Source of the DNA: a virus
Lineage: Duplodnaviria > Heunggongvirae > Uroviricota > Caudoviricetes
Virus record (IMG/VR): IMGVR_UViG_2526164603_000034
Direction: 5' to 3' (one strand)
DNA length: 18,316 bases
Part shown: positions 9,001 to 15,000 of the stretch, piece after piece
Numbering within the stretch: the first letter of the stretch is position 1
Layout: the number at the start of each line of letters is the position of its first letter
Position numbers: made by a program

Positions 9001-12000
9001 ATCATTATAGCCTTCGGTCATCGGCGTATTCAGCGCACGAACTGCACCCGGCGACATCTTACCGGTCAGCCATTCATCAGTGGCTTTGGCACCATCACTG
9101 ACAGCCTTACCGGTTGCCTTCAGACCTTTACCGACAGTATCAGTAACCGCGTTTTTGCCATCAGGCAGGGTATCGATGACCTCATCAGCCCCCCTGCTGC
9201 CACCGGCAAAAATATCCTGCACAGTTGCGACACCCGGCAGCCCCATACGGCTGAACTCATTTAAAATACGCGCCCCTGTTTTTACCGGGCTCTGAATCAT
9301 CGCATCACCGAGTCCACGGGCCATTTCCCCTGTTCCCCGGACGGACTGGGCGAAACCTTTACCCATTGTTGGCAATACATCGCCCAGGCTGAACGACGTA
9401 CTGTTATCCTTCCAGCGATTCGGATCAGAGAAAAATGCTTCATAGCTGTCAGTTTCGCCGGGTTGCTGAATGTTCAGGCTGTTACGATTCTGGTTACCGA
9501 GTTGCGCCTCAGGACGCTGTTCCTCTGAATAGGCCATACAGACTCCATAAAAAAACCCGGCACAATGGCCGGGCATCAGGAAATGGTATTAATGGAATAT
9601 CGTGAATTACTGGGCGTAATTCTGTTTCAGTCCACGGATAAACTGAGATGCAGATGAAGCACTTTCATCTCTGGCCTGTTCCCCCCTGGCCTTTTGAATA
9701 CGGAGAAAATTCGCATACCCGTTCTCCAGCAATTTCTGATTCTGAGGTTCCAGCATTTCAGGCTGACGGGCCGCTACATTTCTGGCAAATGACAGCTTAT
9801 CAGGATCATCTCCCGCCCAGTTGATAACCTGTTGCTGAAGTTTTTGTTGCTGAATTTTCTGTTGATGCGGTTGTGAACCAGTCGCAGCATAATATTCATC
9901 CACCGCAGCCTGAGCATTACCGCCATTCTTGATCGCGTCCGCCGCTACGTTGCTGGCCCCCTTCTGAAGCTCTTTCAGAGAAAGTCCCTGCTGCTTCGGC
10001 ATAAAATAACCATAATTTTTCGATATCTCTGCAAATTTGCTGCGATCCCTGACCTGAGCGATAGCCTTATCAACGGGTATCGCCAGCACGGTTTGATCAT
10101 CAGGGTGCGCACTGCCGTATTCTGTTACAGGTTTATGCGCGGTGGAGCCATCGCTGTATGTGAGATCAAGGCCAATAAGTACGTACCCTTCCTGCTGCGC
10201 TGGTACGATACTGCCAATCCTGGCCTCTTTTATCGTTTTGTCCCCGGTTGAATCAGGCATGCCAATACGCTGTTGTAGTTCCGGGGCAAACACGCCGGAA
10301 AGCACATCGAGATTTTCCGGGGTATTCAGCGAATCGATCGCCATGTCCGGCTTATCACCAAAGATTTTTTGCAGGTTGATCACGGCCTGACCCGCTTTCG
10401 CTGCATAGCCTTCGTTTGACATAAGAATTAATGGATGTCCCTTTGGCAGCTGCCCGAACAGACGCGTTGCAGCCTCCTGATCGCCAGCCTCAATTGCTTT
10501 TCCAAGCGCTTCCATTAGTGGCTGGCTATGGGCAATCATATCGTTATACTCAAGCCGTCGCTGGTTGTATTTCTGCAACTGGAGTCGCTGCTGCTCCATA
10601 CCCAGTGACGCATTCCGGTAATTCTGGTTAGCGTTAAACTCCCTTTCCTTCAGTGCATAATTACGGTCGTCAACTTTGGCTCTGTAATCAAAGTTCCGCT
10701 GATCAACGTTTTTATTATGTTCAAACTGAGACTGCGCAAACTCAAAATCGCGCTCGTTATTTTTCTGTTGCCGGGCAAGCTGTGCTTCACGCAGACCAAG
10801 CTCCTTACGACGGGTCATTGCCTGGTCAACGGTGCTGAATCCGGCAAGTAACCCCTGTGCAAATCCGCTCATTCACCACTCCTTAAAACAAAGAACCAGC
10901 AATGCCGCCAATTACTGCTCCAGCAACAGCACCAACAGGACCACCAACGGATGCGCCAATAGCCGCCCCCGTACCAATGCCCGTACCGATATTCTGCTTG
11001 TTCTGCGCTTTCTGTTGCGCCGCCATCTGTTTGTTCGCAGCCTCAATTTCTTCACGTCGTCTGTCTGCGTCACTTATTCCCTGTAATGCCTCACGCCGCG
11101 ACTGATTTGCAATATCCAGTAAACCGTATCCCATATTGCCCCCTTACGCTGCCACCAGTTGGCCGCCAACACTCAGTTTCTGTCTTGCCGGTGCAGAAGC
11201 CCCCGTCAGAATATTCATCTGGCGATCCTGTTCGGCTTCACGGATACCATTTTTCGCGCCAGCAATTGCCAGGGCATTACGTAACCCCAGCGTATTACTG
11301 TCGGGATTATCCGGGCGGTTTACCCCGTATCTCGCCATCTGGTTATCCTGCGCCATCTGCGCTGTACGGAGACTGGAAGTGGCAAGGCCTCCCACCCGTG
11401 CAAGCTGTGCATTCATCAGACTGTTGTTCTCCCCAAGGTCAGCCAGCCTTGCCACGCGGGGCAAATATCTGGTTCGCCAGTCGTCGTATTGTTGGCGTGT
11501 CAGCGCTGCTGACGTCTGCCAGTCACCCTGTGGGCGGTCTGCTCCTGAATAACCAGCCCTTGCGAGAGTTTCGTATTTGCCATACTCCATAATTACAGTC
11601 TCCAGTTCTGAGCCTGATGCTGAATGGCATTAGCGCCGGTGCCAGGTGTTTTAGCACCGCCACTTCCTCCGCTACCGCCAGCCTTATGCATCGCATATGC
11701 ACCTGCCGCACCCAGACCAGCGCCAACAAGAGAGGCTCGCCCCTGCTGTTTCGTAAACGCCGCCTGTGCATCCGATTTAGCTTTTGCCAGACTGCTGTCT
11801 GCCAGAGAGTTAAAACTCTGTAACGCATCCGCCTTCTGACCAGAACCGAGAGCAGCAACATCCTGTAGCCCGGCAACATACTTATCTGCCTGCGATACCT
11901 GCCCCCGTGTGGTTGTGTCAATCTGCCCGGTTACCTGGTCACTCTGGTTCGCATTCATTACCGCATTAAAACGACCACTGGATGGGTCAACGCCGGACTG

Positions 12001-15000
12001 AGCAAGATTACCCGCAAGCTCCTTCCGTGCTTCGCCAAACTGTTTCTGATACCCCAGATTTGTGGTGCCAGCAATATTGTCGTACTGCTGCTCACTGTTC
12101 AGGTCATCGACCTTTTCCATGAAGTTATCTTCAGCCGGGCGGAGGATATTTTTGTAATCCTGCCACCCTTTCCAGGCCACTTCTTCCTGTGCTATTTGCG
12201 CTGCTGTTGGTTTTACTTTGGTATCACCACCGCCTTTACTTCCACCCATAATGGCCCCCTGGATAACAAAAAACCCTGCCGGAGCAGGGTCAGAATGTGA
12301 ATTACAATGTTGGTTTAAACACAATGATGAAAACTGTAGCAGTCAGACCGCTATCCTGAACACCATGAAGCCATCCTCATCATCCGGCATTCGCTCAAAG
12401 CCCAGTCGTTTTCCCAGCCGGATAAATCCCCGCCTTGCCGTATGGAACTCAGCCCAGCGTCCGCCAGCCAGATGGGTTAATGTCTTCACCTCCGGCAGGT
12501 AACGCTCAACGCTGTTACTCCCCGTACACACGCCCAGCAACACCAGAACATAAGGGATACCATCAGCACTGAGCACAGAACGCAGCACCAAAAAGCCATC
12601 AGGTGCCTCAAAACAAAACGCCTGCTTTTTAAGGCAGGCGTCTTTAACTTCATTCATAAATTCAGGGTTGCGGGAATTTCTCACAACACGCTGCATATAC
12701 CAGAGAATTTTATCGTTCATTCTCTCACCTGAAACGGGTGCCATATCGGCTGAACCTCAGCAACCAGTTGACGGGGACTCTCGTCCCCGTCGCGGTTTTC
12801 CTACTGCTTACACTGTAAGAACGCCGCAAACTCCGCTCCCCACAAATTCAGCCGGAACTCACACAGTGAACCGTGCAACATCCAGATGGTGAAGATAACC
12901 GTCATGCAAATTGTGACGGTGATAAGCGATTTTTGCGACATAGCGCTTGACTCCTTTTACAGAGAGGCGCTAACCTTCTACTTGCTTAAGGTACGAAGTG
13001 TTAGGGCCTCGGGTTAACGTTAAGTTGACTCGGGGCCTTTCCACATCAGGCCTTCAGGTTCACCCTCCAGCCATCAGCCGAAAGGCACCCACGCATAATT
13101 TACGGTTTTTGCCCTGTACGGGCAATAAAAAACCCGCCATCACAGCGGGTAGTAAACGGTTACCGGATACAGGTCAGAATTTCAGGCCAATGCCAGCAGT
13201 AACGCCACTCGTGCGCCAGTCGCCAGAGCCGGAACCTTCGTAAGCCACATCCAGTGTAACACTCTCATTCAGGTTAAACTGTGCACCTGCAGCCCACGCA
13301 AGGGAGGTTTTTTTCGTGCTGTTGCTTTCAGAAAATCCGCCACTACTGTTAATATTGTCCTTAATTTTCAGGTCAGCGCTAACTTTAGCAACGCCCATCC
13401 CTGCCATCGCATATAAACTCATGTACTGATTAACCCGCCATGAAGGCCCCGCTAACAGACTCCAGTAATTCGCCCTGATATCCGTTCTGGCAGAAGCTGC
13501 CGGATTCTTAATCTTCCTGGTATGATCGGCTGACTGCACATCAATAAATGTCTGTGAGTTAGTGAGAGAACGCGTCCATGTAAAAGAGGTGATAACGCCA
13601 AAATCATCCGTTATCTCGTAGCGATACCTGATATTAATGCCCTGTGGATTTTTATCCTTGCCTTCATATCCACTGACCCGACCATCTGTATATTCGCCCA
13701 ATGAAGAAAAGTAGTTTCTGTTGACGAAATGACTGAAAGTCTCCCTGTTATGAGCAGTCGCATCCTTTACAAAATCCTTCAGTCCCGGAAACTGAAAGTG
13801 CGCATACCCCAGAGAAATTGTATGCTCTCCTTCTGCTGCATGTGCAGATAAATTTACACAGGCAATCCCGGAGATTGCACACACAACCAGTGTTGCTATA
13901 CTCTTCATTTAAGATATCCTGTATTCAGATAACACGCTAAACTTTTTAATAATACATCTTTTTAGACATTTTAAATGAATATTAAAGACTCGCTTCAACT
14001 AATCATATACTGATGTATTAATAACCAGGACCTTATCTATATACGGCTTTCGAATATCCCATGTTGCACCACCGGAATAATGCTCACAGGAATATATTTT
14101 ATTTCCTGTAGCACCAGTGGATGTGGTATAAATCGGTCGATCATAAGGAGTTCTTTTCCAGTTATAATACCCGACCAGTGCAGGCATGATTGCGCATGGA
14201 TATCCAAGGTCCTTTTCAAATTTGATATCAACAGGTATTAACTTCGCGTCAAGCAGCATCATTTCGCCATGATAAATCATCTCACCGTCCGGGTTATACA
14301 TGGCGATACCATACTCAGAAGGTGGAGTAACCATATTCGCGAAAGCATAAACCGTCGTAACACCAGGGTTCGTTCCCCTGACAATTACATGAAGCCTTAG
14401 TGCATGATATCCATCAATCTGTTCATGCGTGTACATGACATCGGCCTTCTTCTCTGTTCTGATAAAGAAAAAACAACTTTTGCCTGACGGGATTGATGTT
14501 TTAAAAAAAGACTTTTCAGTCGCCGGTATGGTGCCTTTGTTGATCAGACACTGCGGCGTAAAACCTGGACTTATCCATACGCTGCCATCCGGCTTCATAA
14601 TGCTCAAACCGTACATAACACTTATCCCCAGAATGTATAAATATAAGATCCCATACCCTGCTCAAGATTCGACCACGTCACCGTATTGTCATTAATGGTT
14701 ATCTTCGGTACTTTCCGATCCGCAAATACATTATTCCAGGGAAATAAACAACATACAGCCTGCAATGATTTCCCGTCGGGTTTATTAGTGTACGTCTTTG
14801 AGCCAGACTCCGCTGTAAATCTGTCCAGGAAAAATACTGGAGTCAGCACGCCCGTAACATTAACGTTATTTCTGTTATAAATGGCAAAACCGTATTCCAA
14901 TACTCACCTCCTGATCAGCGTAATCTGCCTATGCGAACAGCCAGTCGTCCATTCTGGTCATAAACCTCAATTTTATCATTGCGGATCACCAGTCCTACAT

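Follow-up and report, generated by a model that had tools for sequence, protein, structure and literature searches.

We consider it likely that the four consecutive minus-strand genes at positions 9607-12249 of the IMG/VR virus record IMGVR_UViG_2526164603_000034 (Caudoviricetes; the whole analysed stretch of 18,316 nucleotides is referred to here as the window) encode encapsidated ejection (pilot, E-) proteins of a short-tailed Shiga toxin (Stx) phage of the 933W/phi24B type. Three of the products, of 218, 148 and 83 amino acids (aa), resemble gp7 of phage P22 and would form a membrane-inserting, nozzle-proximal part of a conduit; the 421-aa product would be its periplasmic part, and the giant polyvalent protein encoded directly downstream would complete the path. 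The window as a whole represents a 933W/phi24B-type Stx prophage. Positions 9400-12800, which hold the four-gene stretch, are 100% identical to Enterobacteria phage VT2-Sakai and match 186 records of Stx-converting and Shigella phages at an identity of at least 90%. The four genes correspond to orf67-orf70 of VT2-Sakai, named 'hypothetical' or 'bacteriocin', and the giant gene to orf71, named 'LPD5 domain-containing protein'. All four products fall into PHROG families without a function, and our literature search found no function assigned to the genes. They are arranged as follows.

11593..12249, minus strand: 218-aa gene (orf67; phi24B gp51; phrog_611), start codon ATG, preceded by AGGGGG at 12260-12255 with a 5-nt spacer.
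11144..11590, minus strand: 148-aa gene (orf68; phi24B gp50; phrog_596), preceded by GGAG at 11603-11600 with a 9-nt spacer.
10883..11134, minus strand: 83-aa gene (orf69; phi24B gp49; phrog_594), preceded by AAGGGGG at 11145-11139 with a 4-nt spacer.
9607..10872, minus strand: 421-aa gene (orf70; phi24B gp48; phrog_601), preceded by AAGGAG at 10884-10879 with a 6-nt spacer.

The list of open reading frames (ORFs) and a reading of the strand agree with the first-pass annotation of the window, which had described four co-oriented genes separated by gaps of 2, 9 and 10 nt, each with a Shine-Dalgarno match of its own. The mechanically called ORF of the 218-aa gene begins at TTG 12324, as opposed to the ATG start at 12249.

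Evidence on the virion comes from phage phi24B, for which a 2026 preprint combined cryo-electron microscopy (cryo-EM) with tandem mass spectrometry after liquid chromatography (LC-MS/MS) of purified virions (doi 10.64898/2026.04.10.717836). The phi24B proteins gp48-gp51 are orthologues of the window genes; the sample consisted of phi24B virions and not of those of the window prophage. About 40% of the particles in the published preparation had emptied spontaneously. In the workbook of this preprint gp48 (421 aa), gp51 (218 aa) and gp50 (148 aa) are listed as structural proteins, with 1634, 523 and 129 peptide-spectrum matches, respectively. On a scale that fixes the portal at 12 copies, the estimates per virion are about 37 copies of gp48, 27 of gp51 and 44-48 of gp50, next to about 23 of the giant gp47. 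The 83-aa gp49 yielded 13 peptide-spectrum matches in total, 6 of them from the batch digest, and was classed as 'most probably contamination' because of its annotation as an 'E. coli bacteriocin'. The authors proposed the giant gp47 as an encapsidated ejection protein and stated that it is absent from the cryo-EM model; their text is silent on gp48-gp51, and no density was ever assigned to them (doi 10.64898/2026.04.10.717836). An older study linked expression of the giant gene to prophage induction and found expression of lom uncoupled from it. As in the class of ejection proteins in general, the phi24B orthologues of the four products occur in purified virions and outside the ordered capsid and tail shell, and the genes are clustered at the distal end of the structural operon. 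Together with the synteny described below, the phi24B LC-MS/MS data support the earlier suggestion of non-enzymatic internal virion or ejection proteins.

Presence in purified virions combined with absence from the density would also suit flexible external or peripheral virion parts, such as needle-tip or fibre-associated proteins, or residual scaffolding or assembly proteins lost in cryo-EM averaging, and the genes are positioned after the tail-fibre and needle genes. We regard this explanation as very unlikely. The phi24B model already accounts for portal, adaptors, nozzle, fibres and needle, with gp54/gp55 proposed as the needle tip (doi 10.64898/2026.04.10.717836), tens of copies of four helical, cysteine-free proteins suit internal cargo better, and scaffolds normally exit the capsid. 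Even less credible, and already disfavoured, is the view that the genes are non-structural accessory genes (for a bacteriocin or membrane toxin, a moron or a transcription factor) and that the mass spectrometry signal is contamination. RefSeq does name the 83-aa product 'bacteriocin', and the phi24B workbook once tags gp48 'Transcription factor?'. However, neither a DNA-binding nor any other domain was found with Pfam and NCBIfam, the abundance in the virion is above that of portal and nozzle, and the position inside the structural operon is conserved in non-lambdoid Vibrio and Aeromonas phages. The class IIc bacteriocin family (PF10439), which corresponds to the RefSeq name, was rejected for the 83-aa product: the Bacteriocin_IIc match reaches 19.7 bits against a cut-off of 27.1 and covers residues 47-80, which comprise only the glycine zipper.

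The module order, namely a 133-aa gene followed by the 218-, 148-, 83- and 421-aa genes and the giant gene, was also found in phages of Aeromonas, of Vibrio and of marine Gammaproteobacteria. At protein identities of 20-52%, the phages phiARM81mr (Aeromonas) and 1.205.O (Vibrio) share the identical order. In the Aeromonas and Vibrio phages, as in viral and genome loci, the 218-aa gene is immediately preceded by an orthologue of the 133-aa gene. Among IMG/VR records, the order is held in 80 of the 80 loci retrieved via the 218-aa family, as far as each contig extends. In species-representative genomes (GTDB), 11 of 12 evaluable loci contain the full block and a giant ORF, including loci from Microbulbifer, Cellvibrio, Vibrio, Pseudoalteromonas and Shewanella. 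Synteny across related prophages, which the first-pass annotation had named as a way to check its proposal, was thus observed. In the remaining locus (L166, a metagenome-assembled genome of the Cellvibrionaceae) the full 218/148/83/421 block is followed by an 841-aa ORF and many small ORFs downstream of position 6593; this locus could represent a decayed prophage, an assembly error or a truly short version.

The 218-aa family itself is broader and comprises 1084 clusters at 50% identity (E ≤ 1e-3), with the signature G[VI][DN]PxSG[RK]F. It includes gp64 of the Bcep22-like phage JC1 (E 3e-22). Word-indexed homologue searches returned only close E. coli and Aeromonas clusters, which served solely as alignment material. 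The query of the genome scan was a divergent subset of 12 sequences from the 144-sequence family alignment. Distant 218-like proteins of 275-500 aa were obtained from Nitrosospira, Paracoccus, Cupriavidus and others; a giant ORF follows in 14 loci, and in 17 of the 31 evaluable loci the next 7 kb or more downstream are free of a giant gene. Because the giant accompanies the block in 11 of 12 loci and is missing from 17 of 31 distant ones, association with the giant is a property of the four-gene block and not of the core 218 family. Occurrence independently of the giant, by which the first-pass annotation would have been contradicted, was seen for the distant 218 family and, L166 aside, never for the four-gene block. 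The additional suggestion of a chaperone-like partner of the giant gained no specific support from these distant members.

The main rival of the ejection assignment starts from the same pairing, as the four-gene block occurs with the giant in all evaluable loci except L166. It holds that the products are internal capsid proteins that load, organise or stabilise the approximately 20 copies of the 300-kDa giant, as Hdf, DarA and DdrA of phage P1 do for DarB, or that they act with the giant against host defences, in either case without a trans-envelope conduit. Giants of the Bcep22 type are annotated as DarB-like, P1 reportedly requires several small virion proteins for the packaging of DarB, and in the virion the four proteins reach about the copy number of the giant or exceed it. 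Nevertheless, we judge this alternative to be unlikely. When the 421- and 218-aa proteins, the only queries used, were compared by tblastn with 50,697 phage records (E ≤ 1e-3), Stx, Aeromonas and Vibrio relatives were the only matches, and no P1-like phage, with its Dar proteins Hdf, DarA, DdrA and DdrB, was among them. The giant is absent beside many distant members of the 218 family, as mentioned above, and the best remote relative of that family is an ejection protein, P22 gp7.

Profile comparisons indicate that the three smaller proteins are paralogues. The 218-aa protein has an N-terminal GGxKGGG start (MGGSKGGG), the signature motif and a Gly/Ala-rich C-terminal segment. Residues 25-125 of the 148-aa protein align with residues 19-125 of the 218-aa protein (hhalign probability 94%, E 1e-7), and residues 5-61 of the 83-aa protein with its residues 131-187 (probability 72-77%). 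Controls with reversed and column-shuffled profiles gave at most 6.4%, mostly less than 2.2%. A deep hidden Markov model (HMM) of the 218 family directly matches 148-type and 83-type orthologues in other genomes, with E values of 3e-14 to 1e-6 for the 148 type. PHROG scans also cross-match between the families; the Vibrio 148 orthologue, for instance, matches both phrog_8003 and phrog_611. The profile-profile matches, the HMM cross-hits and the PHROG cross-hits together show that the 148- and 83-aa genes represent a paralogue of the 218-aa gene that is split in two. An apparent fusion of both halves in some marine genomes (ORFs of 205-213 aa) was rejected, as these ORFs consist of a 148-type protein with an N-terminal extension of 70-85 aa, and a separate 83-type ORF comes next. 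The 83-aa protein ends in a hydrophobic glycine-zipper segment with the terminal residues SLF (Kyte-Doolittle value of window 52-83: 1.69), and its match to the Pfam family Gly-zipper_YMGG (25.7 bits) lies below the cut-off. None of the four families shows similarity to the giant protein, and PDB sequence and profile searches, including one with the 218-family alignment profile, matched no ejection protein.

The deep 218 profile aligns with the P22 gp7 family at a hhalign probability of 75-78% (E ~2e-5), collinear over 159-165 columns. Controls remained at 0.6% for the reversed profile and at or below 0.3% for 30 shuffles. The gp7 profile was built from eight diverse homologues; an earlier gp7 profile from 80 IMG/VR loci (≥ 86% identity) was dropped as too shallow. 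With 88-93% (E 4e-7 to 3e-6), the match of the 83-aa profile to the gp7 C-terminus is higher, and its reversed and shuffled controls are far lower. The C-termini of the Vibrio 83-type protein (GGPWGAVIGAGVGYIGSLF) and of gp7 (TPWGAAIGGGIGLLGSLF) illustrate the common pattern PWGAxIGxGxGxxGSLF. C-termini of the 83 family mostly read SLF or ELF, and those of gp7 read GSLF in 54 of 54 sequences examined. This C-terminal glycine zipper ending in GSLF is present in the 83-aa protein and not in the 218-aa protein. At the other end, mature gp7 begins with KGGKG, which is exposed by removal of a 20-residue leader (PMC8402733). The 218-aa protein is leaderless, and many members of its family have an extra 30-44 residues before the GGGG start. 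Based on these comparisons, the 218-aa family is a probable remote relative of P22 gp7, although membership in the gp7 family is unproven because searches at the HMM level miss the link.

The fourth product, of 421 aa, carries a conserved N-terminal SGFAQGLLAGF motif. Its AlphaFold model (pLDDT 65) has a long helix (about 115 residues), a bundle of helices at the C-terminus and a small alpha/beta domain. No sequence match was found for it in the PDB. The protein is without detectable relatives beyond its own family, and its likeness to tunnel proteins of the gp20 or T7 gp15 type lies in position and size only. A GFAQG(L/S) motif occurs at the N-terminus of the 421-aa protein (window 10830-10872), and near residue 72 of the giant the related GKGFAQSVRG is found (9300-9340); a motif of this type, GAFAQGLMQG, also stands at the N-terminus of JC1 gp68 (positions 7507-7570 of locus L085). 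This motif, which is too short for statistics, might act as a common signal for capsid targeting or portal binding. The giant protein has Pfam hits above the gathering scores to LPD38 (167 bits), LPD5 (153), LPD1 (84.5) and MuF_C (64).

In the four products, by comparison, no Pfam, NCBIfam or PADLOC family exceeded its threshold, in agreement with the earlier statement that they carry no recognisable catalytic motif. The predicted helical nature is likewise borne out, since AlphaFold secondary structure is nearly all helix, to which the 421-aa protein adds a small beta domain. Gly, Ala, Gln and Asn together account for 45, 40, 49 and 36% of the 218-, 148-, 83- and 421-aa proteins, compared to 28% of the giant and 20% of the 133-aa protein. 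One part of the description needs qualification: the label 'low-complexity' applies solely to the glycine-zipper stretches (residues ~132-210 of the 218-aa and ~32-83 of the 83-aa protein) and, judged by 30-residue entropy, not to the 148- and 421-aa proteins.

All four proteins lack cysteine, as does the giant (0 in 2793 residues), and the same is true of their Aeromonas and Vibrio counterparts. Cysteine is also absent from JC1 gp64, gp66, gp67, gp68 and the 4515-aa gp69 and from P22 gp7, gp20, gp16 and the needle protein. It is present in most other proteins of the structural modules, among them the 133-aa protein (3 residues), P22 gp14 (4), portals (4-6), nozzle-type proteins (7-8) and terminases (4-8). 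Further proteins without cysteine are those of the tail fibre, orf52, orf54 and the P22 scaffold. As circumstantial evidence, the lack of cysteine suits proteins that have to travel along the tail channel and function in the periplasm, and it marks the limit of the presumed ejected set between the 133-aa and the 218-aa genes.

Compared to P22, in which the needle gene is followed by gene 14, gene 7 (229 aa), gene 20 (471 aa) and gene 16 (609 aa), the genes likewise stand at the end of the structural operon, after needle and nozzle genes, with rising sizes. P22 gp7, gp20 and gp16 are similarly cysteine-free, the 218-aa protein is collinear with gp7, and the 83-aa protein shares its C-terminus; virion copies in the tens are a further likeness (PMC8402733). 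In contrast to the single gp7 of P22, three gp7-like genes are present here, one copy being split into 148 and 83 aa. Moreover, no relation of the 421-aa protein to gp20 was detected, the 2793-aa polyvalent protein replaces the 609-aa gp16, and the upstream 133-aa gene is unrelated in sequence to gp14. Gene positions and sizes in the window fit the gp7-like, gp20-like and gp16-like series tabulated in PMC8954989. The same review groups the P22 proteins with T7 gp14, gp15 and gp16 as outer-membrane, tunnel and inner-membrane components. The resemblance to T7 is one of functional class, with outer-membrane proteins of about 200 aa, mid-size tunnel proteins and large inner-membrane proteins in gene order (PMC8954989). 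However, the PDB profile search with the 218-family alignment gave no sequence or structure match to them, and T7 has an ordered core stack on the portal, whereas none is reported for phi24B.

JC1 has a related capsid, portal and nozzle module. Besides gp64 as a member of the 218 family, its gp68 begins with GAFAQGLMQG, which resembles SGFAQGLLAGF, and gp64, gp67, gp68 and the DarB-like gp69, all cysteine-free, were found in the virion by mass spectrometry. It differs in the interspersed genes for an acetyltransferase and a PAPS reductase, in an N-terminal extension of about 100 aa in gp64, and in that separate genes of the 148 or 83 type were not detected; neither gp67 nor gp68 shows significant similarity to the 83- and 421-aa proteins. 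In N4-like phages (Schitoviridae), which likewise have a T=9 capsid class, a giant of about 3,500 aa is packaged into the capsid and leaves it together with smaller ejection proteins from neighbouring genes (PMC13434306, PMC10925440). No sequence relation exists, however. The N4 giant is a virion RNA polymerase, whereas the domains of the present giant are of the peptidase-like LPD and MuF_C types; it has about 23 copies in phi24B and is accompanied by four small partners instead of the two in N4. Finally, gp45 of crAss001 (PDB 7qog) is an encapsidated cargo protein with a GASVGGPxGAxxG glycine zipper like that of the 83-aa protein (E 0.0098), but the match is limited to about 40 residues of an 842-aa protein from an unrelated phage lineage.

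Several observations weigh against the ejection assignment. The link between the 218 family and gp7 is just moderately probable and is unseen by HMM-sequence searches: none of 144 family members matches phrog_598 ('DNA ejection', gp7) at E ≤ 0.001, and BLASTP of the 218-aa protein against gp7 gives an E value of 0.14. Nothing can be learned from the AlphaFold model of the 218-aa protein (pLDDT 35). A hydrophobic window that exceeds a transmembrane-like threshold is confined to the 83-aa protein, which is also the one with few peptides and the status of a contaminant according to the phi24B authors. For the 421-aa protein, Foldseek found no match in the PDB (best E 0.31) and only its own family in BFVD, and hhalign gave 0.2-0.4% against P22 gp20, that is, no similarity. 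Exit from the capsid, its order, a need for infectivity, insertion into a membrane and the choice of that membrane are inferred, as is the role of the 421-aa protein.

With these points taken into account, we still favour the ejection assignment, in which the proteins would act as follows. The four genes would be transcribed late, together with the giant gene, and their products loaded into the procapsid in tens of copies each, to lie disordered inside the T=9 head. After receptor binding they would be expelled ahead of the DNA via the portal-nozzle channel. The Gly/Ala-rich C-termini of the 218-aa protein and of its split paralogue, notably the glycine zipper of the 83-aa protein, would insert into a host membrane, and this gp7-like part would most likely form the outer-membrane-proximal section of the conduit. 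The periplasm-spanning material would come from the 421-aa protein with its ~115-residue helix, and the 2793-aa polyvalent protein would finish the path to the inner membrane and deliver its own enzymatic domains. A more far-reaching version, which we put forward as speculation, regards the cassette as a dedicated protein-injection apparatus. The three gp7-like products and the 421-aa protein would then form a hetero-oligomeric translocon that mainly delivers the approximately 20 copies of the 300-kDa polyvalent effector ahead of the DNA, and the split of the paralogue would set a half that binds the capsid or is soluble apart from one that inserts into the membrane, permitting different stoichiometries. 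The genes appear to form the phage's own variant of the podovirus ejection-protein cassette, and not the uncharacterised system that the first-pass annotation had envisaged.

The block is flanked by the following features.

12343..12744, minus strand: 133-aa gene (VT2-Sakai orf66, phrog_610; PHROG match E 2.6e-70).
12262..12291, minus strand: terminator-like hairpin and T run upstream of the 218-aa gene, stem 12291-12272.
9546..9574, minus strand: terminator-like hairpin and T run between the 421-aa and giant genes, stem 9574-9555.
1156..9537, minus strand: giant polyvalent gene (orf71; phi24B gp47), 2793 aa, with LPD5, LPD1, MuF_C and LPD38 domains.

Both flanking hairpins that had been described as terminator-like are real stems, each followed by a T run; folding of region 9574-9555 gave -17.9 kcal/mol (z = -2.4). 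In the Vibrio relative neither hairpin is conserved. The upstream hairpin (12262-12291) probably terminates lysogen transcripts arriving from the region of lom and the 133-aa gene, and Q-modified polymerase would be expected to read through it. The four-gene block is thus bounded by hairpins as had been proposed, but it is not the complete unit, as the 133-aa gene (12744-12343), a fifth conserved gene of the module, lies outside them. This conserved first gene takes a position analogous to that of P22 gene 14, and its product, dissimilar in sequence to P22 gp14, may act as an assembly factor in the cytoplasm. Its orthologue was not detected in phi24B virions; at this position, the phi24B proteome tables contain no forward-frame ORF. 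The annotated start of the giant gene, ATG 9576 (2806 aa), lies within the terminator stem and has no ribosome-binding site, whereas the in-frame ATG 9537 has GGAG at 9546-9543, five bases upstream, and yields 2793 aa. From these sequence features, the true start is probably ATG 9537. In phiARM81mr (locus L002), the giant is annotated from 18541 (3190 aa), and the frame is open from 16555, giving up to 3852 aa (16555-28113); the earlier start would fill an unannotated gap of 1.9 kb behind the 421-type gene. The tail-gene region of the same phage (5876-7509) contains a '23S rRNA-intervening sequence protein' gene and a 'retron-type' reverse transcriptase gene, a pair typical of diversity-generating retroelements aimed at tail fibres.

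Upstream of the module, positions 13174-14900 form an island of low G + C content (40-43%, compared to about 52% elsewhere) that carries lom and a phrog_425 'membrane associated protein' gene and lies between the tail genes and the ejection cassette. In the relatives from Aeromonas and Vibrio this island is missing, and the cassette comes directly after the tail genes. At one end of the window, identity to VT2-Sakai stops at 17799, where an IS3-family element starts (17799-18316, end sequence TGAACCGCCCCGG; orfA at 17853-18179). It removes the first ~28 codons of the gene homologous to VT2-Sakai orf61 and the phi24B nozzle gene. Because of this truncation, the window prophage is probably unable to build tails. 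At the other end (window 1-1155), similarity to VT2-Sakai stops at about 1125, directly past the giant gene and its terminator. Positions 1-933 represent a host-type gene of the formate/nitrite transporter family, and VT2-Sakai orf72-orf82, the accessory genes after the giant gene, are absent from the window.

Phages of the 933W/phi24B type spread Shiga toxin genes. The assignment of orf67-orf70 therefore bears on how these short-tailed phages pass their DNA through the envelope after binding to BamA. The kind of system and, from the phi24B preprint, the virion association of the orthologues are already known; new are the paralogy and the split, the link to gp7, the rescue of the 83-aa 'contaminant', the cysteine-free signature and the breadth of the module. 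Recognition of orf67-orf70 (gp51-gp48) as ejection apparatus supplies concrete targets for mutagenesis and cryo-electron tomography, and the gp7 link ties three of the proteins to a system that has in-situ structures. It also corrects the 'bacteriocin' label that lies behind the discarding of the 83-aa protein in the only virion proteome. Taken together, a module with a giant cysteine-free cargo protein is widespread among proteobacterial podophages, and absence of cysteine may prove to be a general and cheap predictor of ejected phage proteins.

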